Below, piece after piece: positions 2,137 through 38,471 of a stretch of 64,000 nt of DNA. The notes beneath the pieces were generated by a model. The model saw nothing but the letters and a program-made list of their open reading frames with translations, made no database searches and had not been told where the DNA came from. Made by a program: the position numbers and the translations under genes. This DNA is from an uncultured Thermoplasmata archaeon (GTDB lineage: Archaea; Thermoplasmatota; Thermoplasmata; Lutacidiplasmatales; UBA184). The stretch lies in the NCBI GenBank assembly GCA_963804525.1, contig CAWDQO010000005.1:738844-802843 (forward strand), read 5' to 3'. The stretch's first letter is position 1. Each line of letters opens with the position of its first letter.

Positions 2137-3470
2137 GGCTCCTGCGGGACCTCGGCGGCGAGCGTGCGCATGAGGCGAGAGAGCGTCGCGTCCGCGTCCT
2201 CGAGCTTGCGGGCCCGCAGCTGCTCGGTGGCCCGCCGGATCTCGCCGGCCGCCTCGTAGGCGAGCTCGCTATCGGACGGGAGCGACCGGACCCGGGCCGC
2301 GAGTCCCCGTGCCTTCGTCAGTAGGCGCCCGAGCGCCCGTTCCGACGATTCGGGGTCGTCGGCGCCGTCGGCCGGCACCTCGTCCACGTCGGACTCTCCC
2401 TCGCCGTCGGCGGCCGGCTCGGGCGGCCCGAGCTCGCCGATCGCCACCCGGAGCTCGCGCAGTCGGGTCGTCGCCTCGACGATCTTGCCCCGCCGCAGAT
2501 GGCGGGTCGCCTCGGCATGGACCGTCCGGGCCGGACGGGAGGGAGCGTGGTCGGGGCCGTACGCGGCGAGGACCTGGGCGTGCCGCTCGAGCTCCTGCTC
2601 GATCGCCGGCGGGAGCGCCTCGTTGAGGAGCATGAGCGCCCGGGCGGCGATCTGGGCCCCCTCGTCGAGCGTGTCGGTCGAGAGGTCCGGCTGGGTGAGG
2701 AGCGCCTTGACCTGCTGGACCGCCTCCTCGACCTCCGCCACGGGGCGACCGACGACCTCCGCCGAGTCCCGGAGTCCGTCGATCTGCCGGAGGAGTCCCT
2801 TCAGCCCCTTCCAATCGGTCTCGATGCGGCCGAGTTGCTCGTCCGCCTCGACGAGGCGGTCGATCGCCTGCTCGGAACGCCCGGCGTCGATCTCGGCCCG
2901 GATCCGGACCGTCTCGGGTCCGAACGAGACCGCGACCCCCTCGTTTCGAAGGACCGCCTGCCGTTCCTCCAGGGACCGGAGCCGTCGCCCGAGAGATTCG
3001 TTCGTGGCCTCGTGGAGGCGGGCGAGCGCCGAACGAAGGAGCGAAAGCGCCTCGACCGTCCTACCATCCGCCTGCGTGAGCGCGGCCTGGTGAAGCTCGA
3101 CGGTGATGTCGGCGGTCGCTCCTCCCAGACGGTGCACGAGGCGGAGGGTCCGGTCGAGCTCCTGCGCCGTCTTCTCGACCTGCTCGGCGGTCGGGTCCCG
3201 GGTCGCGGGGCGGGCGGACCGCGGGGGCGGCTTCGGCCGGGAGCCGGTGGCCGGGAGCGGAACCGCTTCGGTCTCGGAGAGGCCGCGGAGGGCGTCCACC
3301 GCGAGTCCCGTGGGATAGCCGCAGACGGCACAGGACGTGGCTGTGGTCGGGTTCTCGGCCTCGCAGACCGGGCAGTCGGAGGTCGGGGAGCGAGCGTACC
3401 TAGACACCTTGGTTATCGTAGAATGGTACGCGTCCGACCTTAATCCCTCCGCCAATGGCCGGTTACCCAC
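2133..3470 (-). CDS. Hypothetical Zn-ribbon + long helical protein
   Basis: ORF 2133..3470(-). N-terminal CPVCEAENPTTATSCAVCGYP ribbon, then about 350 aa of helical sequence and an acidic patch (GEGESDVDEVPADGADD). The more likely start is GTG at 3407-3405 (VSRYARSPTSDCPVC), about 30 nt downstream of the AT-rich GGATTAAGG. Confidence 0.7.
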   Translation of the reverse strand: MGNRPLAEGLRSDAYHSTITKVSRYARSPTSDCPVCEAENPTTATSCAVCGYPTGLAVDALRGLSETEAVPLPATGSRPKPPPRSARPATRDPTAEQVEKTAQELDRTLRLVHRLGGATADITVELHQAALTQADGRTVEALSLLRSALARLHEATNESLGRRLRSLEERQAVLRNEGVAVSFGPETVRIRAEIDAGRSEQAIDRLVEADEQLGRIETDWKGLKGLLRQIDGLRDSAEVVGRPVAEVEEAVQQVKALLTQPDLSTDTLDEGAQIAARALMLLNEALPPAIEQELERHAQVLAAYGPDHAPSRPARTVHAEATRHLRRGKIVEATTRLRELRVAIGELGPPEPAADGEGESDVDEVPADGADDPESSERALGRLLTKARGLAARVRSLPSDSELAYEAAGEIRRATEQLRARKLEDADATLSRLMRTLAAEVPQEP

Positions 3471-30509: not shown

Positions 30510-31908
30510 CTACGGTCCGCCGCTCGGGGGACTGGGGGGCGTCGGGCCCTGCGGGGGCGGGAGCCCCTGGGACGACGGCACCTGCTGGCTGTACCCGCCG
30601 ACGAGGCGCCCGCCGGACTTCCGCCGGGACCAGCTGCGGTACTCGACCACGCCGACCGACCCGACGGCCGCCACTGCGACCAGCCCGACGACGAGGAGCG
30701 GCAGGATCGACCCCGCCACGCCTCCCGTCGAGCCGCCGCCGCAGCTGCCCTGCAGGCACGAAGCGTCGTACTGGGCCGTCGCGACGCTCTCCGGCTGGCC
30801 CTGGACGGTCGCCTGGGACGGGGTCGGACCCGCCTGGGACGCCGTCGCGGTCACCGTGGCGCTCGACGCGAGGCTCTCGTCCTCACCCTGGTAGCTCGTC
30901 GCCGAAGCGACGACCTGGACCGAGTGGGTCGGGGCGTTGAGGGCGAGGTCGAGACGGTCGGTCGCGACCGACTCGCTACCGATGTTCGCGCCCGCGAATA
31001 CGTGGCCGCCGGCCCCGAAGATCTCGAAGCCGTGGGGCACCAGGATGAACCCGTCGACGTCGTCGAACGGACCGGTGATCTGGATCGCGATCACCGGGAC
31101 CGTGCGGCCGTTCGCGAGCGTCACGGTCCCGAGGTCGGTCCCGATCAGGGTGACCGTACCGGTGCCGGTGACGCTGCCGTTGGGGTTCCCGGACCCGCTC
31201 GAGTTGACCCCGAAGAGGCCCGAGTTGCTCCACTGGTATGCGAGCGACCACGTCCCGCTCGCCGTGTAGGCGGCGGTCGAGTTCCACGTCGCGCCGGTCG
31301 TGAGGTTCCACGGCACGAGACCGAACGACGGCGAGAACGACACGGCGCTCTGCGAGCTGCCGCGCGCGTCGAGGTGGCCCGACGCGGTCTTGCCGAGGTA
31401 GGTCAGCGAGTACGACTCCGTCAGGTTCGACGCGCCCCGGGCGGAGGCGTTGTCGATCCCGACCGCGCTCACGGGCGTACCGTTCTCGTACACCTGGGCG
31501 GTCGCGCTCAGATTCGCGAACCCGGTCTCGGACTCATGGCCCTGGATCGACAGGTTGCCGGAGGCCCGCGCGCCGTTGTACTGCGCGAAGAGGTCGGCCG
31601 CCATCGTCCGCTGGGCCTCGAGTTCCACGGTGCCCGCGCTCGTGTTCGTCGCGGTGTAGATCACCTGCCAGCCGAAGAACGCGTGCGACTGGTACGTCGC
31701 GTTCCCCAACTGCGCGGAGACGTTCACCCACTTTTCGCCGCCGTACGCCCACTGCTGGCTCGTCGACGCGCTCGCGGCGGTCGAAGGGCCGGGCAGCGGC
31801 GACGGGGGCGGCGCCCGCCGTCGCGGCGAGCACCGGGAGGACCAGTACCATCGCCGCGACGACGCCGAGCGTCGCCAACATGCCCATCGTTCGTCCGTTT
31901 CGCTGCAT
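30510..31908 (-). CDS. Secreted, C-terminally anchored glycoprotein (sequon-rich), signal peptide in a different frame
   Basis: The body is ORF 30510..31970(-): many N-x-S/T sequons (NATY, NTSA, NLSI, NGTP, NASA, NLTE...) and a C-terminal TM helix [21 protein letters not shown]. The signal peptide [28 protein letters not shown] is in ORF 31534..31908(-). They join at the G5 run at 31804-31808. Confidence 0.7.
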
Positions 31909-32037
31909 TCCGTTCTCCTGTGGGACCGCCTCTCGCCGTCCCGAACGAAGCGAGCCCGGTTTTTCGACATAAACCCCCGTCCCGGGAGGTTGGGGGGTCT
32001 CGGGACGGTGTGCTAGGCCGTCGCAGCCGGGGTCCGG

Positions 32038-33730
32038 TCATCGCCCGGCCGACGGCCGGTCGGTCACCCCGGGGATCCAGAACCTCGCTGTCTTGGCAAC
32101 TTCGAGCGAGGTCTCGTACCCCGCATCGGTATGCCGGGCCACCCCGAGTCCCGGGTCGTTGTGAAGGACACGTCCGATCCGACGGTCGGCCTGAGTCGTG
32201 CCGTCGGCGACGACCACGAGACCGGCGTGGATCGAGTTCCCGATCCCCGTGCCGCCCCCGTGGTGGACCGAGACCCACGACGACCCGGAGACCGCGTTGA
32301 GGAGGGCGTTGAGGATCGGCCAATCGGCGATGGCGTCCGAGCCGTCCTTCATCCGCTCGGTCTCCCGGTACGGGCTGGCGACGCTGCCGGTGTCGTGGTG
32401 GTCCCGCCCGATCGCGACGGGAGCGGCGAGCGCTCCCGAGCGGACGAGGTCGTTCACGAGGTGGCCGAACCGCTCTCGGTCGCCGTACCCCATGTAGCAG
32501 ATCCGGGCGGGCAGTCCCTGGAAGTGGACCCGCTCGCCGGCGAGCCGGATCCACCGGGAGAGGTCCGGGTTGGACGCGAACTCGGTGAGGAGCACTCGGT
32601 CCACCCTCGCGATGTCGGCCGGGTCCCCGGACAGGGCGACCCAACGGAACGGGCCACTCCCCACGGCGAACAGGGGTCGGATGTAGGCGGGGACGTACCC
32701 GGGGATGTCGAACGCGTCCGTGACGCCGGCGTCCCGGGCCTGGGTACGAAAGTTGTTGCCGTAATCGAACGTCTTCGCGCCCCGGCGGCGGAGTTCGAGA
32801 ATCGCCCGGGCCTCGACGGCGATTGACTCGCGGACTTCCCGAAGATAGGCGTCCCGGTCGGCTCGCGCGCGCCACCGCGGCGCGCTCCGGCGTGAATCCG
32901 ACCGGGAGGTAGCCGACCTCGATGTCGTGGGCCGCGGTCTGGTCGGACACGATGTCCGGGAGAACCCCGCGCCGGACGAGCTCGGGGTAGACGACGGCGG
33001 CGTTCGCACACAGCCCGACGGAGCGGGGCCGTCGTTCGGAGGCGGCCTCGCGGACCCGGGTGACAGCGTCGTCCAACGACGCCGCCTCCTCGTCGAGGTA
33101 GCCGTTCGCGAGCCGGCGCGCGAGCGCACGGGGGTCCACGTCCACGATCAGCGCGGCCCCGCCGAGCATCGTGACGGCGAGCGGCTGGGCACCGCCCATC
33201 TCGCCGAGCCCGCTCGTGAGCATCCATTTGCCCGCGAGGTCGGGCTGGCCGAACTCGATCCGCGCCAACGACGCGAGGGTCTCGTACGTCCCCTGGAGGA
33301 TTCCCTGCGTACCGATGTAGATCCAGCTCCCGGCGGTCATCTGGCCATACATCGTCAGCCCCCGGGCCTCGAGCGGCCAGAACTCGGCGTCGGTCGCCCA
33401 GTGCGGGACGATCATGGCGTTCGAGATGAGTACGCGGGGAGCCTCGGCGTGGGTCGGGAAAACACCGACCGGCTTTCCCGACTGGACGAGGAGCGTCTCT
33501 TCGTTTCCGAGGACCTTCAGGGTGGCGACGATCTGGTCGTAGGCCGCCCAGTTCCGCGCCGCTTTGCCGCGACCTCCATAGACGATCAGATGCGCCGGGT
33601 CCCGGGCCACGTCCGGGTCGAGGTTGTTCATCAAGAGCCGAAGGGCGGCCTCCTGGCTCCACCCACGGCACGCGAGGGTCGGACCGCGAGGGGCGTGGAT
33701 CGGTTCCCGTCTCACGTCGTCCATGGCCAC
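32038..33730 (-). CDS. hutU: Urocanate hydratase, frame-interrupted near 32865
   Basis: The N-terminal part is in ORF 31724..33730(-) ([24 protein letters not shown]...[12 protein letters not shown]...[24 protein letters not shown]). The C-terminal part is in ORF 32038..33129(-) ([10 protein letters not shown]...[11 protein letters not shown]...[20 protein letters not shown]...[12 protein letters not shown]). The break falls in a GCGCGCGCG tract. Confidence 0.9.
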
Positions 33731-33927
33731 CCGCCACCGAGGCTCGGAGCCTTGAAAGGTTGCGCGGGCTTAGGCGGGCCGACGGGGGCTGGGATTGGCG
33801 GGACAACGGGTCGTCGCGCAACGTCCCACGCCCCCTCGTCGCAGCGAACGCGGGCGGACGGCGTGGGGCCCACCACGACGGGGAAACGCTGCCGTCCGAC
33901 GTGTCTTCGTCGTATCTTTGACGGTCC

Positions 33928-33934
33928 CTTATAC
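33928..33934 (+). promoter_or_regulatory. TATA-like box for the PKD/GNGS glycoprotein operon
   Basis: CTTATAC, centred about 28 nt upstream of ATG 33959. Confidence 0.45.
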
Positions 33935-33958: not shown

Positions 33959-36184
33959 ATGCAGCGCCGCCGGGCAACCGAGGCCCCAGTGAGTCGAACG
34001 AGGGACGAGCCGTCGCGAGGCGATCGCCGCGGCCGTGGATGGGCCGCGCTCTTGGCCGTCGTCGCCGTGGGGGTGCTGATCGGGCTTCCCGCCATCGCTC
34101 TCGGAGGGGTTCCTCCCGCTCCATCGCACGGGCCACTCCCCGCCGCACACGCTCCCCTTGGTTCTCACTCGGCGAACCGGTCGGGGGGAGGGTCTGGGAA
34201 CGGCTCGGGCGGATCGGGTAACGGCTCTGGCGGGGGCTCCGGGAACGGCTCCGGAAGCAGCTCCGGCAACGGTTCCGGCTCTGGGTCTGACAACGGCTCG
34301 GGTGGGGGTTCCGGAAATGGCTCCGGCTCGGGCAACGGGTCGGGGAACGGATCAGGTTCCGGGAACGGTTCGGGGTCCGGCGGGAACCGGACCGGCGGGA
34401 ACGGAACGACGGGAAACCTCAGTGGCGGGTCGAATGTGACCGTACTTTGGCAGAACTCGTCCGGCGGGTCGTTCCAACTCTCCGCATGGAACTACTACCT
34501 ACGATTCTCCGCGGTGGCGTCGGTTCGTGATGGGATCAACGCCGCGAATCTCACGATTACCGGGACGGCGTACTGGCCGGCCTCCCCCGCCGTGGTCGCG
34601 ATCCAGTTCGTGAACCTCTTCACCTGGAATCAGACGATGAATGGATCCCGGGTCGGCTACGGATCGTTCTCCGCGTCGTACGTCTACACCCAGTCGGGAC
34701 GGTACAACCTCGTGATCGAGCTGAGCGACCCGACCGCCTCCACGTTCGTCCAGACCTGGCTCCCGGTGACGCTTACCTCGGGATCCGGAACCGGGGGCGG
34801 TTCCGGCAGCGGGGGCGGGAGCGGTTCCAACTCCTCCGGCGCAGGGTCCAGCGTGGTTCTCGAACCGAACTCGACTTCGAACTACATCGAGTACGACCTC
34901 ACCGCGTGGAACGGCTCGCTCACGGTCACGGCCGACGCGGCCCTCACGACCAGCAACAACTCCGCGTACCTCAACGTCAACGGCTACGCGTGGTGGCCCA
35001 CGTCCCCCGTCCGGGTGGTCGTCCTCTTTGGCGACGGTAATGGATGGAACGGGACGTACACGGGCTCGAACTCCAGTCAGGGCGCCGGAGGCTTCTTCGC
35101 GAGTGACACGTACACGACGGCCGGGTGGTACACCGTCGCCATCCGAATCTACGACGCGAACTCCTCCGCCGGCGTGCAGAACGCGTTCGAGGTCGTCTTC
35201 CCGGGAACCTCCGGAAACGGCTCGAGGGGCAACGCATCGGCCGGGAGCTCGGTGACCTCGTGGTTGAACACCTCGAATGCGCTCGGGTATGACCTCCAGG
35301 CGTGGAACGGGACGTTCCGGTTGAACGCGTTCCTCTACATCTGGGAGAACTCGACCGTGATCCTCGCGACGATCTCCAACTTCACCCTCACGGGCGGCGC
35401 GTACCCCTTCGTGAACTACACGATCGCGTACGGAGACGGCAGCTTTGGTTTCGGATTCAATCCTGAGAATATGAGCGCGCAAACCGTCGGGACCGCGTCG
35501 TACGCCGCTCCCGGGAACTACACGCTGTCGATCACCGCGGCGAATCTCGGGATCAACGTGAGCGGAGCGACCCTCGGCGTCTCGGTTCCGCTGGACCTCG
35601 CCTATGGCCCGAGCACGAACCCCCCGGCCCCCTACCCATCGTCGGTGACCGTTTGGGTCGGCGCTTCCCCGGTGACGGGGTCGGTTCCGCTCAACACGAC
35701 CCTGTCCGCGTACGTGAGCGGAGGGGCCCCTCCGTTCGTCGTGACCTGGAGTCTGCCGGGGAGCAACATCTCCGGGAACCTGACCGGCCTGATGGTCTCG
35801 GTCTCGTACGCGACTGCGGGCTGGTACCCCGCCACCGCGTTCGTGTACAACACGACGTCTCCCTGGGGGACGGTCCTCGTGGGGTACGGCAGTGTCTGGA
35901 TCTATGTCGCCGGGGTCGGGAACTCGGGCGGGAGCGGGAACGGCAGTGGGTCCGGGAACGGGTCCGGAAACGGCTCCGGGAATGGCTCGGGCCTCACGCC
36001 GATCGTTGGTCACGGTCCGGCGGTGGGTATGGGCCCGACGGCAATGATCGGCGCTCTCCTCATCGCGGCGGCCGTGGCCGGAGCGGTCGTCGGATCGGCG
36101 AGTGGGTTCCTCTTCGGGCGGAGGTTCCCGCCGCGCGCGAGCGCCGGAGCTCCGTCCGGGCCGGACAGAACGGGTCCGGACTGA
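33959..36184 (+). CDS. Large surface glycoprotein with repeated Ig/PKD-like modules and GNGS arrays, N- and C-terminal TM helices
   Basis: Tail of ORF 32927..36184(+), from ATG 33959. [23 protein letters not shown]; a repeated module ending in W.P.SPV..V..F and YT.[AS]G.Y.[LV].I; PKD-like [14 protein letters not shown]...[15 protein letters not shown]; C-terminal [20 protein letters not shown]. Confidence 0.75.
34181..34432 (+). repeat. In-frame (G/S)-N-G-S tandem array (about 84 codons)
   Basis: [79 protein letters not shown], encoded by degenerate ggc-tcc-ggg-aac units. Confidence 0.85.
35917..35993 (+). repeat. Second in-frame GNGS array
   Basis: [27 protein letters not shown], immediately before the C-terminal TM helix. 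Confidence 0.8.
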
Positions 36185-36194
36185 GGCGCGCCGA

Positions 36195-37170
36195 ATGAGT
36201 TCGGCAGAGGGCGAACCCCCGAACCCGGGAGGCGCTCCGGGCAGCACCCGGAGGGACACCCGCTGCCCGGACCCCCGCCGTTGGGTGGTGCCAGGGGTGC
36301 TGGTCCTCGCGGTCGTCCTTTCGGTCAGCGGGCTCGCGGCCGCCCCGGTCACCGACCGCGCGGGACCGACGCCGGTGTCAGGGGCCCTTCTCCGAGTCGC
36401 CGACACCCCGATCCTCACCCTGGTCCCGTCGCCAGCCTCGGGGAACGCGCCCCTGCTTGTCAACGTGAGCGTCACGGTCTCGGGCGGCGAGGCGCCGTAC
36501 AACCTGTCGCTGTGCTTCGGCACCGTGGACCACGAGAGTTCGTCCCCGGACTGCGGGACCGGCGCCGCGGGCTGGAACGGCTCGACGGCGCTCTATTTCC
36601 AGCATCTCTACGAAACCCCCGGAAACTTCAGCGTCACCGGGGTCGCGACCGACCACGACGGTGCCGGCGTGGGGTCGACGGCCCTCATCGTCGTGACGGA
36701 CCGCTCTGCGCTGAATGCGACGGTTGAAGAGCGCACGACCTCGGGCCCGGCCCCTCTCTCGGTCACGTTTGATGAGAGCGTGGCCGGCGGCACTGCACCC
36801 ATCACGCTCCAGTGGTCGTTCGGGGACGGGACGGTCGGCTCGGAGCTACCGGGGGTCCCGGTGGTCCACGTATACGAGTCCGCGGGGACGTTCACGCCGA
36901 CGCTTACGGTCACGGACGGAGCCGGTCACCGGACCGTCCGAACTCTCGCGCCGGTCACGGTCTCGGTCACGAGCGGCTCCGGCCGCCGGGCCGGGTGCGC
37001 TGGGGGGTCCGACCTGGCTCGCGGTCGGGGCAACGTTCGCAGGCACGGCGCTCGCGGTCGGCGTCCTCGTCCGCCTCCTCCAACGCCGCCGCTGGCGGAA
37101 GGAGGGGAACGCTCTGCTCGCCGAACTCGGACGGGACCCCGTCGGACGGCCGCCACCGATGGGACCGTGA
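36195..37170 (+). CDS. PKD-domain membrane protein, frame-interrupted near 36985
   Basis: Frame of ORF 36102..38471(+), from ATG 36195. VVPGVLVLAVVLSVSGLAA; two PKD-like units (SGNAPLLVNVSVTVSGGEAPY; SGPAPLSVTFDESVAGGTAPITLQWSFGDG...YESAGTFTPTLTVTDGAG). The TM anchor and tail GPTWLAVGATFAGTALAVGVLVRLLQRRRW...MGP* are in ORF 36715..37170. Confidence 0.7.
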
Positions 37171-38471
37171 GCCGGCCCCGAAACCGTCCTCGCCACCGAC
37201 GATGGCTGCCGGTCCCGGCCGGCGTGGCCGCCGCGCTCCTGGCGATCGGGAGCATGCTTGGGAGCGTGCTCCCGCTCGTCGGTGCGGCGGGAGGGCACCC
37301 GATGCCCACCTCGTGTGGATACACCGTGGACGTGACCGCGACCCCTTCGACCGGGAGTGCTCCCCTCCTCGTCCGCCTGAGCGCGACCGTATCCGGGGGA
37401 ATCCCGACGGCGTACGATTGGGCGTTCGGCGATGGAAGCTACTGGAACAGTTCGCAGGCTGGGGCGGAGAGTCCGTTGCATCGCTACGCGACCCCGGGAG
37501 CGTACAACGTGAGCGTCCTCGTCATCGAACCGTCGTGCGAGGTCACGGGAGGGGTCACGCTCGTCGCGACCCCCAGCCCCCTGACGATCGCCCTGAGCGC
37601 GACGCCCACCTCCGGCGTGGCACCGCTGACGGTAGAGTTCGTGGCGACGGTGGCCGGCGGGAGCGGGACGTATGCCAGCGTCTTCTGGTCGTTCGGGGAC
37701 GGGGGGGTCGGCGCGGGAGTCGCGGTCAACTACACGTACGTCCGGACCGGGACCTACACCGTCTCGGTGAACGTCACCGACTCCGAGGGACACTGGGCCA
37801 CCGCCCACGAGACGATTGGTGTCCAGGACGGATCGACGGCGCCGAGTGCGGGGTTCGGAGGGGCCGACGATCTTGTGCTGACCGTCGCGGCCGGGGCGGC
37901 GCTCGCCTTCTTGGCGGTTGGCCTCGCTTGGCGCATCGCCGTCCGGGCTCGAGAGAGGGCAGGGACGACCCCAATCCGTACGGCCGCGGGGGAAGCCGGC
38001 GGGTCATCTTCGGGAGAGCCGAGCCGACCGTCCGGCCCATCCGGCGCGTCACCGGCGTTGGCGGGAGCGGCGGGCCCCGCGGTGCCCGCTTCGAGAGCGA
38101 CGGGAAACAGCCCGCAGGCGGATCCGCGCGTCGTTCCCGACCCGCGGGGCCTCCAGTTGACCCAGCGTGTGATCCTGCATATCGGGGCCCAGGGCCGCTT
38201 GTCCCCGGACGATGTCGCCCCGCCCGGGCTCACCCAAGCCGGGATTGCGGACGCCCTCGGGACCGGGCAGAACTCGGTCACGAACGTCCTCCGGAGGCTC
38301 GTCGCGGCGGGTGTGGTCGTCCACGATGTCCGGCACGTCTCGGGACAGCCCCGACGGCTCCGAGTCTACCGGTTCACGGATCGAGGCGAGTCGGTCTACC
38401 GCGATCTTTGGAACCGGTCGAACGCACGGGGGGAGGAGCAGGCGGGGCCCCCTGGCGGAACCTCTCCGTAG
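37167..38471 (+). CDS. Two-pass membrane protein: extracytoplasmic PKD domains + cytoplasmic winged-helix DNA-binding domain
   Basis: Frame of ORF 36102..38471(+), from GTG 37167 (GTGA overlap with the upstream stop). RHRRWLPVPAGVAAALLAIGSMLGSVLPLVG; PKD units (STGSAPLLVRLSATVSGGIPTAYDWAFGDG; TSGVAPLTVEFVATVAGGSGTYASVFWSFGDG...TGTYTVSVNVTDSEG); TM helix LVLTVAAGAALAFLAVGLAW; then LTQRVILHIGAQGRLS...LTQAGIADALGTGQNSVTNVLRRLVAAGVVVHDVRHVSGQPRRLRVYRFTDRG. Confidence 0.75.
   Translation: MSRPRNRPRHRRWLPVPAGVAAALLAIGSMLGSVLPLVGAAGGHPMPTSCGYTVDVTATPSTGSAPLLVRLSATVSGGIPTAYDWAFGDGSYWNSSQAGAESPLHRYATPGAYNVSVLVIEPSCEVTGGVTLVATPSPLTIALSATPTSGVAPLTVEFVATVAGGSGTYASVFWSFGDGGVGAGVAVNYTYVRTGTYTVSVNVTDSEGHWATAHETIGVQDGSTAPSAGFGGADDLVLTVAAGAALAFLAVGLAWRIAVRARERAGTTPIRTAAGEAGGSSSGEPSRPSGPSGASPALAGAAGPAVPASRATGNSPQADPRVVPDPRGLQLTQRVILHIGAQGRLSPDDVAPPGLTQAGIADALGTGQNSVTNVLRRLVAAGVVVHDVRHVSGQPRRLRVYRFTDRGESVYRDLWNRSNARGEEQAGPPGGTSP

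Follow-up and report, generated by a model that had tools for sequence, protein, structure and literature searches.

The window analysed here, a stretch of 64,000 nucleotides, comes from an uncultured soil archaeon of the Lutacidiplasmatales (Thermoplasmatota). A preliminary description of this DNA had placed three co-directional genes at 33959-38471, and our ORF analysis bore this out (g1, g2, and g3; Table 1). The gap between g1 and g2, previously given as 11 nt, is 10 nt (36185-36194); the 4-nt overlap between g2 and g3 was correctly described, the g2 stop codon TGA (37168-37170) sharing the sequence GTGA with the GTG start of g3 (37167), and g3 is translationally coupled to g2. Because the g1-g2-g3 layout was found again at three other loci (L001, L012, and L030) and the architecture of g3 in at least 46 proteins, each of which stands for one cluster at 50% identity, the arrangement is not due to chance.

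Table 1. Features of the locus, with positions in the window.
Feature	Position	Strand	Description and basis
hutU (urocanase)	32041..33730	-	Divergent from g1; context, outside the unit
Conserved upstream block	33875..33934	+	Inverted repeat and TATA-like box; alignment of window, L001, and L012
g1	33959..36184	+	741 aa, membrane-anchored surface glycoprotein; ORF and hydropathy analysis
g2	36195..37170	+	Partner protein, ~324 aa after frame correction; ATG at 36195
g2 anchor end and juxtamembrane tail motif	37054..37140	+	Alignment of 12 partner proteins
g3	37167..38471	+	434 aa, membrane-tethered wHTH protein; GTG start
g3 TM1	37212..37292	+	Residues ~16-42; hydropathy
g3 ectodomain	37314..37826	+	Two PKD domains, residues ~50-220; Pfam
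g3 TM2	37866..37955	+	Residues about 232-263; hydropathy 2.39 and AF2 helix 234-263
g3 linker	37956..38156	+	Residues 264-330; AF2 pLDDT <50
g3 C-terminal wHTH	38157..38441	+	Residues 331-425; family profile, AF2, and Foldseek

At its N-terminus the g1 product carries a TM helix or signal peptide, and at its C-terminus a TM helix; it also contains beta-rich repeats. It had been described as a 741-aa glycoprotein with GNGS arrays, in agreement with its 43 N-X-S/T sequons and with the Gly/Asn/Ser-coding arrays (periods of 12-24 nt) that TRF finds at 34174-34415 and 35948-35988. Its PKD match is weak (Pfam E 0.017). Orthologues of g1 lie at the same position in L001, L012, and L030, and urocanase adjoins the unit in these three loci and in L013, L025, and L026, the L012 call being made from ORF position and length only. 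A search for a palindromic operator upstream of 33959, as had been suggested, revealed an inverted repeat, ACGACGGGGAAACG / CGTGTCTTCGTCGT, at 33875-33888 and 33900-33913. It is followed by TCGTCGTATCTTTGAC and then by a TATA-like box, CTTATA (33929-33934), which precedes the g1 ATG by about 30 nt. This block is nearly invariant in an alignment of the window, L001, and L012, three fairly close genomes, and the remaining intergenic region is poorly conserved. In most other loci TATA-like boxes lie 27-33 nt 5' of the start codon of the partner gene (the counterpart of g2), and no common operator motif was found across the paralogous loci. We regard the block as a candidate operator plus promoter.

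In the raw sequence, g2 and g3 are read as one ORF of 789 aa (36102-38471) because of a 1-nt indel. The preliminary description had noted a frame break near 36985, and two observations place it at ~36970-36990: the GC3 of the raw ORF frame at ~36940-37120 is 0.57-0.59, compared with 0.84 in the +1 frame, and the g2 orthologue of L001 matches frame 0 as far as 36983 and, between 37012 and the stop codon at 37170, frame +1. Identity between g2 and the orthologue is 65-71% across the two frames, and in L001, L012, and L030 the whole of g2 lies unbroken in a single frame. Frameshifts are also present in the genes for urocanase and a neighbouring glycoprotein, both within 7 kb, with ~77-88% identity on either side of the breaks. 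The apparent frameshift in hutU lies near 32861, and a tblastn search with the L001 urocanase found its first 290 aa in frame -1 and aa 290-563 in frame -2, with 87.6% identity for both parts. A near-identical copy in another assembly (P0003) has frameshifts at different places. Because the orthologues are intact and two neighbouring genes are also frameshifted, we take the indel in g2 to be, most likely, a sequencing error without biological meaning. An artefactual split of g2 and g3, which had been raised as a possible objection, is not what we found: they are separate genes in L001, L012, and L030, and most likely here. That the 789-aa (or 758-aa) ORF is real and encodes one protein with four PKD domains and a winged helix is very improbable: the raw sequence does lack a stop codon in that frame, but it is the +1 frame that has the high GC3 and codes for the conserved TM anchor and tail, g2 of L001, L012, and L030 has its own stop codon overlapping or just before the g3 start, and frameshifts recur in the neighbouring genes.

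Once the frame is corrected, g2 conforms to the PKD protein of about 325 aa with a C-terminal anchor described earlier (Pfam PKD E 3.5e-17): an N-terminal TM helix or signal peptide and two PKD domains are followed by a C-terminal TM helix and a conserved tail. The ectodomains of g2 and g3 are 34% identical over both PKD domains (E 3e-13) and, by this similarity, are paralogues. The tail of g2 (…VRLLQRRRWRKEGNALLAELGRDP) comprises an Arg-rich stretch and then a short [G/S/A]-x-x-L-[hydrophobic]-x-x-[L/M] helix, a motif that aligns in 12 partners with differing ectodomains (PKD only or Kelch plus PKD). An HMM of the tail recovered four held-out partners (L017, L028, L029, and L030) and had no match besides partners in the six-frame translation of 181 kb; in the same 181 kb it did not match the TM-anchored g1, the g1 orthologues, or the upstream glycoprotein, and in the alignment, too, the motif is absent from the g1 tail.

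The gene upstream of the regulator could be read in 17 loci (the window, L001, L012, L013, L017, L018, L021-L030, and one JGI locus), and in each of them it runs in the same direction and encodes a surface protein. In 16 of the 17 (16 loci with DNA sequence) this partner ends in a TM helix and the conserved Arg-rich helical tail, and partner and regulator are often spaced by a 4-nt overlap. The preliminary description had suggested checking whether the three-gene unit is conserved. Our comparison supports the triplet in L001, L012, and L030, but g1 occurs only in these closest relatives, and it is the partner-plus-wHTH pair that is widely conserved. The predicted cytoplasmic tail of the partner is a feature that goes beyond that first reading.

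The order of parts given earlier for the 434-aa product of g3 (TM1, two PKD domains, TM2, linker, wHTH) is supported alike by hydropathy, Pfam, and AF2, and residues 15-429 share 55% identity with an orthologue in Ca. Lutacidiplasma silvani. An Arg-rich N-terminus (MSRPRNRPRHRRW) precedes TM1, with six Lys/Arg before TM1 and none after it; AF2 predicts a helix at residues 18-31, and TM1 may be a signal anchor or else a signal peptide, whether cleaved or uncleaved. The ectodomain, with two conserved cysteines and four N-X-S/T sequons, matches Pfam PKD and PKD_4 with E values of about 1e-21 to 3e-21, and its PKD domains reach a pLDDT of 94-98 in the full-length AF2 model. Directly after TM2, on the cytoplasmic side, follows WRIAVRARERAG. 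In each of the 46 long-form members, Lys and Arg are more numerous on the C-terminal side of TM2 than on its N-terminal side (3.59 versus 0.22); in the 46 relatives, sequons number 2.69 per 100 aa in the ectodomain versus 0.07 in the C-terminal part, and the cysteines are all in the ectodomain. Charge, N-glycosylation sites, and cysteines therefore agree in putting the PKD domains on the outer face of the membrane and the wHTH on the inner, and these sequence statistics agree with the N-in/C-in topology predicted previously. The linker of g3 is rich in Pro, Ala, Ser, and Gly and is predicted to be disordered; across the family it spans 42-151 aa (median 86) with 21% Pro and no sequence conservation. 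The predicted layout is that of two outward-facing, glycosylated PKD domains and a disordered linker holding a cytoplasmic winged helix. PKD domains are generic surface modules, and ligand sensing by g3 is our inference.

The wHTH of g3 consists of helix 1, helix 2, a recognition helix, a beta-hairpin wing, and a C-terminal helix. It had been described as MarR/TrmB-like; the MarR side of this assignment stands in the form of a PadR/MarR-like domain, and the TrmB side was rejected (Pfam E 0.13). The matches of g3 itself to Pfam wHTH families fall under the curated cut-offs (HTH_Crp_2 1.6e-4, MarR_2 2e-4, and PadR 0.014), which places g3 in a separate, uncurated family within that clan; among 150 family members, 31 match HTH_Crp_2, 26 PadR, and 26 MarR_2. 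A profile of 40 family members searched against the PDB gave a significant match to the PadR-family protein Rv3488 (E 9.3e-7, 82 of 97 profile positions), followed by SlyA (2e-3) and AdcR (5e-3). AF2 models the domain with high confidence (pLDDT 94.6 alone and 92-97 in the full-length model). Almost all of the top 50 Foldseek matches, and all of the best, are PadR or MarR DNA-binding regulators, including the MepR-DNA, SlyA-DNA, RovA-DNA, and PadR-DNA complexes. Arginines in the recognition helix and wing tip (R377, R396, and R397) are nearly invariant, and the wing signature R-R-x-x-V-Y-x-L-T-x-x-G resembles the PadR consensus. Profile and predicted fold together indicate that the wHTH is real and closest to PadR and MarR.

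Library searches returned 1330 matches at E≤1e-3, 552 at E≤1e-10, and 61 at E≤1e-30; at E≤1e-10 the family comprises 552 clusters, and every named match is from Thermoplasmata. Within this family, some proteins are PKD-tethered, some have just a TM helix as tether, and others are soluble or fused to a STAND ATPase. The stand-alone homologues of 100-170 aa are annotated as MarR or PadR regulators and all come from Thermoplasmata. One relative, a STAND ATPase with TPR repeats, carries the same domain at its C-terminus as output, a layout that is typical of regulators. The tail-bearing partner is common to the PKD-tethered, TM-only, and soluble forms. The pair of partner and wHTH protein belongs to a large unstudied family that probably links cell-surface events to gene expression.

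We consider it probable, with moderate confidence, that g3 is a membrane-tethered one-component transcription regulator that works with its partner g2. DNA binding by g3, surface sensing, the operator, pairing of the ectodomains, and docking of the tail are what we infer. At the cell surface, the g2 and g3 ectodomains would form a pair that signals surface contact or the presence of a ligand. In response, the winged helix in the cytoplasm would change in its dimerisation or its availability; it is as dimers that PadR-type domains bind DNA. Still on its long tether, the winged helix would bind an operator such as the conserved inverted-repeat block just upstream of the g1 TATA box, and by binding there would control the surface-protein operon g1-g2-g3 and perhaps further genes. 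The tail of the partner may serve to dock this winged helix or hold it back, which would explain why relatives that are TM-only or untethered still lie beside a tail-bearing partner.

Alternatively, the winged helix might be inactive while tethered, and on a surface signal a protease might cut the linker or TM2 and free the soluble PadR-like domain to diffuse to its operators, as in anti-sigma factor processing. A protease could plausibly act on the linker, which is long, unconserved, Pro-rich, and disordered, and the soluble homologues show that the domain can act untethered; cleavage-dependent activation has also been reported for CadC (PMC11484849). We nevertheless consider this route unlikely: no protease gene is associated with any locus examined, the linker has no conserved cleavage motif, and for membrane-bound regulators such as CadC and the transmembrane regulators of Vibrio, DNA binding in the anchored state has been described (PMC6320335, PMC11856585).

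It is similarly doubtful that the partner is only cargo. On that reading g2 and the Kelch/PKD proteins would be the regulated genes, and the regulator would sense by its own ectodomain or sense something else. Regulators are often encoded beside their targets, soluble family members have no ectodomain at all, and the tail motif is short: its Arg-rich stretch and short helix resemble a generic positive-inside anchor and could be an anchoring or sorting signal shared by a class of surface proteins instead of a docking site. However, the tail HMM passes over the other TM-anchored surface proteins in the 181 kb, translational coupling by a 4-nt overlap is frequent, and the tail persists across unrelated partner ectodomains and all three regulator forms. 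A winged helix that does not bind DNA and serves as a protein-protein or scaffold module, connecting surface PKD proteins to cytoplasmic components, is improbable. Winged-helix folds do bind proteins in some systems and the g3 matches are below Pfam thresholds, but every close relative, by sequence or by structure, is a DNA-binding regulator, the nearly invariant arginines and PadR-like wing argue for DNA contact, and the stand-alone homologues and STAND fusion fit an output domain.

The product of g3 shares its DNA-binding fold with the PadR short subfamily (M. tuberculosis Rv3488, PDB 5zhc/5zi8) and with MarR proteins (SlyA, MepR, and AdcR), its best matches in both sequence profile and structure. 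The PadR and MarR proteins known so far occur as soluble dimers in the cytoplasm and sense small molecules, whereas the domain of g3 lies C-terminal to a membrane anchor and a long disordered linker, and the long form adds an extracellular PKD module. Soluble regulators can also be sequestered at the membrane, as Mlc is by PtsG and sigma factors are by anti-sigma factors. For the soluble and TM-only members such sequestration would apply provided that the winged helix is kept at the membrane by the tail of the partner, although there is no homology to these systems and the interaction is hypothetical. ArnR and ArnR1 of Sulfolobus acidocaldarius are characterised membrane-bound archaeal transcription factors (PMC13286277, citing Lassak 2013 and Bischof 2019); like g3 they are archaeal proteins with a membrane-anchored HTH, and they control surface structures. 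ArnR has an N-terminal HTH, C-terminal TM helices, and no large ectodomain, and is regulated by phosphorylation, whereas g3 has the reverse order, a PKD ectodomain, and a wHTH of another family, and belongs to another phylum. The likeness to ToxR and CadC drawn in the preliminary description does not extend to the layout: in ToxR, CadC, and TcpP the winged helix is N-terminal and of OmpR type, and the topology is N-in/C-out, whereas the PadR-like winged helix of g3 is C-terminal and its sensor N-terminal to the last TM helix; the proteins have no sequence relationship, and the host of g3 is an archaeon with TATA/TFB-type promoters. What stands is the functional analogy: in both, one polypeptide combines an extracytoplasmic sensor, a membrane span, and a cytoplasmic winged helix attached through a disordered linker, and some regulators of the ToxR/CadC/TcpP type, like g3, have a co-transcribed membrane partner such as ToxS.

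The three co-directional genes encode a surface glycoprotein (g1), a surface protein with two PKD domains (g2) and a protein in which two PKD domains between TM helices precede a linker and a winged helix-turn-helix (wHTH) domain (g3). They lie in DNA of about 70% G+C, and the ORF listing merges g2 and g3 into a single frame. Third-position GC (GC3) marked the g2 frame as coding to about 36940; it stood at 0.57-0.59 at 37000-37120, against 0.84 in the +1 frame, and the coding signal was back in the original frame from about 37170. A TM helix and a tail are read in the +1 frame of g2, which ends at the TGA overlapping the g3 start. Among the genomes of the species collection, the closest is that of Candidatus Lutacidiplasma silvani (Thermoplasmatota, Lutacidiplasmatales); its related locus, L001, has all genes intact: a glycoprotein and a urocanase gene, both on the opposite strand, then g1, g2 and g3. 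There g2 is a single unbroken frame with the TM helix and tail at its end, and g3 starts at its stop; against the window, the L001 g2 protein aligned in frame 0 as far as 36983 and in frame +1 from 37012 on. The gene model and frame break of the preliminary description are therefore right, and its concern that the split of g2 and g3 might be an artefact is not upheld; the gap between g1 and g2 is 10 nt instead of the 11 nt it gave.

Two neighbouring genes on the minus strand are also frameshifted. The urocanase gene switches frame near 32861 (87.6% identity either side of the break), and an upstream glycoprotein gene of the 466-aa type does so near 31781-31828 (85% and 77%). A database protein near-identical to g3, P0003 (377 aa), stems from a different assembly and has different frame errors, two of which compensate each other after TM2, and a stop codon is read through into downstream sequence; this is independent evidence of indels in assemblies of g3's organism. 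From the intact L001 orthologues, the two frameshifted neighbours and the P0003 errors, we infer that the assembly behind the window probably contains indel errors, which may affect other ORF calls in the window as well. Most likely, g2 and g3 are separate, translationally coupled genes: GC3, the orthologues and the neighbouring frameshifts rule out the single 789-aa ORF as a genuine gene, and we regard a real fusion as extremely improbable. The sequence 3' of g3 contains a weak T-rich stretch and nothing stronger; predictions of bacterial promoters and terminators were disregarded for this archaeal host.

In the g1 product, a hydrophobic segment lies at the N-terminus and a TM helix at the C-terminus, and the N-X-S/T sequons number 43; Tandem Repeats Finder (TRF) located Gly/Asn/Ser-coding arrays in the gene with periods of 12-24 nt. 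Its orthologues (size range 551-746 aa) are about 45% identical in the C-terminal half only; towards the N-terminus they differ in how many Gly/Asn/Ser arrays and repeat modules they have, as would be expected of a fast-evolving surface glycoprotein.

Coordinates of the genes and sequence elements in the window and in related loci
Feature	Locus	Position	Strand	Remarks
g1	window	33959-36184	+	start ATG 33959; 741 aa, from ORF listing
Raw ORF spanning g2 and g3	window	36102-38471	+	789 aa in ORF listing
g2 start	window	ATG 36195	+	10-nt gap after g1
g2 tail	window	37054-37140		
g3	window	GTG 37167 to 38471	+	434 aa; start overlaps g2 stop TGA 37168-37170
Two frameshifted neighbour genes	window	30510-33730	-	intact orthologues, 77-88% identity around each break
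g1 orthologue	L001	5331-6986		
g1 orthologue	L012	2260-4044		
g1 orthologue	L030	785-3025		
Urocanase gene	window	32041-33730	-	
Urocanase gene	L001	3413-5104		
Urocanase gene	L012	342-2048		
Urocanase gene	L013	2456-4255		
Urocanase gene	L025	2043-2933		
Urocanase gene	L026	261-1943		
Urocanase gene	L030	1-562		
Loci with partner and without g1	L013, L018, L021-L029, one JGI locus			JGI locus from protein data only
Inverted repeat	window	33875-33888 / 33900-33913		upstream of g1
GTATCT element	window	33912-33934		
GTATCT element	L021	about 2200-2257		
GTATCT element	L025	about 2980-3036		
Cas12f1-like/TnpB gene	L021	542-1888		PF07282
Region ahead of short-form wHTH gene	L018	4798-5001		gene annotated from 5001

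With its two PKD domains, g3 scored 75.5 bits against a cut-off of 23.5 and 76.2 bits against a cut-off of 27 with the two Pfam PKD profiles (PF00801 and PF18911; E about 1e-21), and AlphaFold2 (AF2) modelled both domains as beta-sandwiches with pLDDT above 94. PKD was also found in g2 (62.6 bits, Pfam). The g2 and g3 ectodomains are paralogous, with 34% identity across both PKD domains (E 3e-13), in keeping with the earlier remark that the sensor shares its domain type with the surface protein.

Topology was judged from charge, N-glycosylation sequons and cysteines in 46 long forms, that is, relatives with the g3 architecture. In all 46, Lys and Arg were enriched in the 15 residues past TM2 (mean 3.59, against 0.22 ahead of TM2), and in 31 the N-terminus ahead of TM1 was more basic than the segment past it. 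Sequon density was 2.69 per 100 aa in the stretch from TM1 to TM2 and 0.07 past TM2, and all cysteines lay between the helices. Together, these independent signals agree on a predicted topology with the PKD module outside and the linker and wHTH inside, which is the N-in/C-in arrangement proposed at the outset; the conclusion is the same whether or not TM1 is cleaved as a signal peptide. A full-length AlphaFold2 model, with an alignment of the 46 long forms as input, showed a TM helix at 234-263, disorder at 264-330 and a confident wHTH at 331-425.

Pfam matches to g3 residues 350-411 were all below threshold: HTH_Crp_2 (E 1.6e-4), MarR_2 (2e-4), PadR (0.014) and TrmB (0.13). Among the best 150 of 1330 relatives, matches at E<=1e-3 were obtained for HTH_Crp_2 in 31, for MarR_2 in 26 and for PadR in 26 (best PadR E 5.7e-7). 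The g3 domain itself reached 15.9 bits with PadR (PF03551), below the curated cut-off of 27, and is tied to PadR at clan level, without curated membership. It also stayed below the MarR cut-offs (PF12802, MarR_2, 21.9 bits against 27; PF01047, MarR, 14.2 against 24.6), and an NCBIfam search of g3 returned no informative family.

A 40-member profile searched against the PDB gave the PadR-family protein Rv3488 (E 9.3e-7, positions 9-90), followed by SlyA (2e-3) and AdcR (5e-3). AlphaFold2 modelled the isolated domain (pLDDT 94.6) as helix 1, helix 2, a recognition helix, a beta-hairpin wing and a C-terminal helix. Foldseek against the PDB placed Rv3488 at ranks 1-3 and the PadR entries 5h20, 3hhh, 6abt, 9qbc and 5x11 within the top 50; MarR-family regulators were also among the best matches. 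The PadR-type fold, a wHTH with beta-hairpin wing and C-terminal helix, is present, and solved PadR proteins are its nearest relatives. At about 95 aa with one C-terminal helix, the domain is set against about 140 aa in the MarR targets (target-normalised TM-score 0.44-0.52), and the MarR arrangement of dimerisation helices on both sides of the wHTH was not found in it. TrmB (PF01978) was rejected, with 12.6 bits against a cut-off of 25.6 and no TrmB structure among the top PDB matches of either the profile or Foldseek. The winged helix is real, as the Rv3488 match and the confidence of the domain model attest. Of its original MarR/TrmB-like label, the MarR/PadR clan relation stands and the TrmB part falls: the domain is nearest to the short PadR type within that clan, and forms a family of its own, PadR/MarR-related yet under the curated Pfam thresholds.

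The full g1-g2-g3 unit with a divergent urocanase gene was also found in L001, L012 and L030 (the L012 urocanase from ORF position and length only). In more distant members g1 is absent, and a co-directional, TM-anchored surface-protein gene, the partner, lay directly upstream in every locus examined, often with a 4-nt overlap. Conservation of the three-gene unit, which the preliminary description asked to be checked, holds for the triplet in these three loci and for partner and wHTH gene in the distant ones. The partner is upstream whichever form the wHTH protein takes (long, TM-only or soluble), and comes in two types, one of 315-458 aa with PKD domains alone and one of 629-1009 aa in which PKD accompanies a Kelch beta-propeller.

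Partners end in a TM helix, an Arg-rich stretch and the pattern [G/S/A]-x-x-L-[hydrophobic]-x-x-[L/M]; the g2 tail reads RLLQRRRWRKEGNALLAELGRDP. An HMM built from 12 partner tails gave the g2 tail 41 bits, and nothing else rose above noise in 181 kb searched in six frames, g1 and other anchored surface proteins included. Applied to held-out upstream genes, it gave E 1e-3 in L017, 2e-4 in L028, 0.24 (top rank) in L029 and 2.6e-7 in L030. With these four, a tail-bearing partner was found in the window and 15 other loci. The partner module is a previously undescribed addition to transmembrane one-component regulators.

Two other genes were seen beside the module. Urocanase (hutU) adjoins partner and wHTH gene in seven loci, divergently in some and co-directionally, directly upstream, in others, including distant loci with wHTH proteins 35-45% identical; the adjacency may reflect simple synteny, or else regulation tied to the use of histidine. 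L021 also has a Cas12f1-like/TnpB gene, about 370 nt ahead of its Kelch partner gene; this is probably a mobile element with no connection to the module.

When a profile made from 3 sequences of the C-terminal domain was run exhaustively with HMMER, 1330 cluster representatives passed E<=1e-3; 552 of them also passed E<=1e-10, and 61 passed E<=1e-30. Wherever source names gave an organism, it belonged to the Thermoplasmata or Lutacidiplasmatales. A word-indexed protein search found 2 relatives only with the domain alone and only proteins of 176 aa or fewer with the 40-member profile, the long forms surfacing in the exhaustive search; a metagenome locus scan with 3 sequences yielded 6 loci only. 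The 64-kb window contained no second wHTH copy. Sorting the best 150 of the 1330 matches by hydropathy and Pfam gave long forms of 380-500 aa (PKD in 68 members), TM-only forms of 180-230 aa with an N-terminal TM helix, linker and wHTH, and forms of 100-170 aa without a TM helix, annotated at source as MarR or PadR regulators. In P0097 (989 aa; Logan contig), the wHTH is the C-terminal domain of a STAND ATPase (AAA_16) that also has TPR repeats; regulators are typically laid out in this way, and the protein is a soluble signalling architecture with the wHTH as output. No paper describing the family was found in a literature search; JGI annotates one member as 'PKD repeat protein/DNA-binding MarR family transcriptional regulator', so the combination of PKD and wHTH has already been picked up by annotation pipelines.

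In L018 (and also L015, L019 and L020), the 200 nt ahead of the annotated start of the short-form wHTH gene encode a conserved in-frame TM helix (GC3 0.89). This stretch has no ATG, GTG or TTG after the partner stop, and ATC 4821 and CTG 4851 are the only candidate starts. The annotated start may be wrong in some 'soluble' members, and the short-form gene might use a non-canonical one.

Comparison of the window, L001 and L012 showed little conservation in the urocanase-g1 intergenic region (228 nt) save for one nearly invariant block: ACGACGG, a spacer of about 20 nt, CGTgTCTyCGTCGTATCTyTGAC, 5-6 nt and TTATA, with the ATG about 25 nt further on. The block contains an inverted repeat with ACGACG/CGTCGT arms and, on the evidence of three genomes, is a candidate for the palindromic operator upstream of 33959 that the preliminary description suggested looking for. 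Most partner genes have a TATA-like box 27-33 nt ahead of the start codon, a spacing that suggests leaderless transcripts. A 7-mer census found no operator motif common to paralogous loci beyond the three orthologous genomes, which is expected if paralogues diverged in specificity. In the window clade and the distant loci L021 and L025, the TATA-like box is preceded at 11-13 nt by a GTATCT element, which might be a shared cis-element; the sharing was not significant after multiple-testing correction.

The three-gene PKD operon with a membrane-tethered wHTH is thus confirmed, and its interpretation is supported with amendments: g3 is a membrane protein that exposes its PKD domains outside and holds a PadR-like wHTH inside the cell by a long flexible tether, translationally coupled to a paralogous surface protein with a conserved cytoplasmic tail. 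We propose that the g2 and g3 ectodomains would interact and report a surface event, which would set whether the wHTH dimerises or is available; this domain would bind near the g1 promoter and regulate the surface-protein operon, and the partner tail might dock it. All these functional steps are predictions. A wider and tentative possibility, which we consider rather unlikely as a whole, is a Thermoplasmatota-specific two-protein surface-to-gene system. The conserved tail of a variable receptor, built of PKD alone or of a Kelch propeller and PKD, would dock a PadR-like wHTH, tethered through PKD-TM or TM only or else soluble, and receptor events would release or activate the regulator. Archaea would then have their own equivalent of anti-sigma/sigma signalling or membrane sequestration, with hundreds of paralogous modules.

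Two alternatives to the proposed action of a tethered wHTH are unlikely. The wHTH might be freed by proteolysis; the linker that tethers it varies across the family from 42 to 151 aa (median 86), consists of 21% proline and shows no conservation. Equally unlikely is that the partner is mere cargo with a tail for anchoring; the tail follows a TM helix, and its pattern recurs with both partner types. A g3 wHTH that does not bind DNA is very improbable: although its Pfam scores are below threshold, Arg residues are conserved in its recognition helix and wing, and several of its best Foldseek matches are bound to DNA. Dimeric, sequence-specific binding is what we predict for the tethered wHTH. If it binds the block upstream of g1, it would offer a direct handle on archaeal surface-glycoprotein regulation and a new type-I-like design among transmembrane one-component regulators. 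The family combines 552 clusters at E<=1e-10 with a clear testable architecture and a fixed partner, and its soluble, TM-only and PKD-tethered variants are a natural series on what tethering adds to a regulator.

The hosts are abundant, uncultured archaea of acid soils. To our knowledge, sensing of the surroundings by cell-wall-less or glycocalyx-covered Thermoplasmatota is poorly understood, archaeal membrane-bound transcription factors are barely documented, and an extracellular N-terminal sensor joined to a C-terminal DNA-binding domain is a topology hardly known in prokaryotes. As two PKD domains and a wHTH, with no kinase or receiver and no other Pfam or NCBIfam domain, g3 has the composition of a one-component system, the PKD module being its putative input domain. 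Regulators of the ToxR/CadC type, to which g3 had been likened, begin with a winged helix of the OmpR type (Trans_reg_C) and continue through one TM helix to a periplasmic sensor at the C-terminus. The membrane-bound one-component layout is common to both, whereas g3 has no Trans_reg_C match, a wHTH of another class and the opposite domain order, with sensor N-terminal and DNA-binding domain C-terminal; its likeness to ToxR, CadC and the Vibrio transmembrane regulators is purely functional. In the literature searched, ArnR and ArnR1 were the only characterised archaeal membrane-bound transcription factors. These proteins of the Sulfolobales have an N-terminal HTH, C-terminal TM helices and no ectodomain (PMC13286277). 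The domain order of g3 is the reverse of the one described for ArnR. Alongside these systems, g3 is a predicted transmembrane one-component regulator type with an undescribed partner module.
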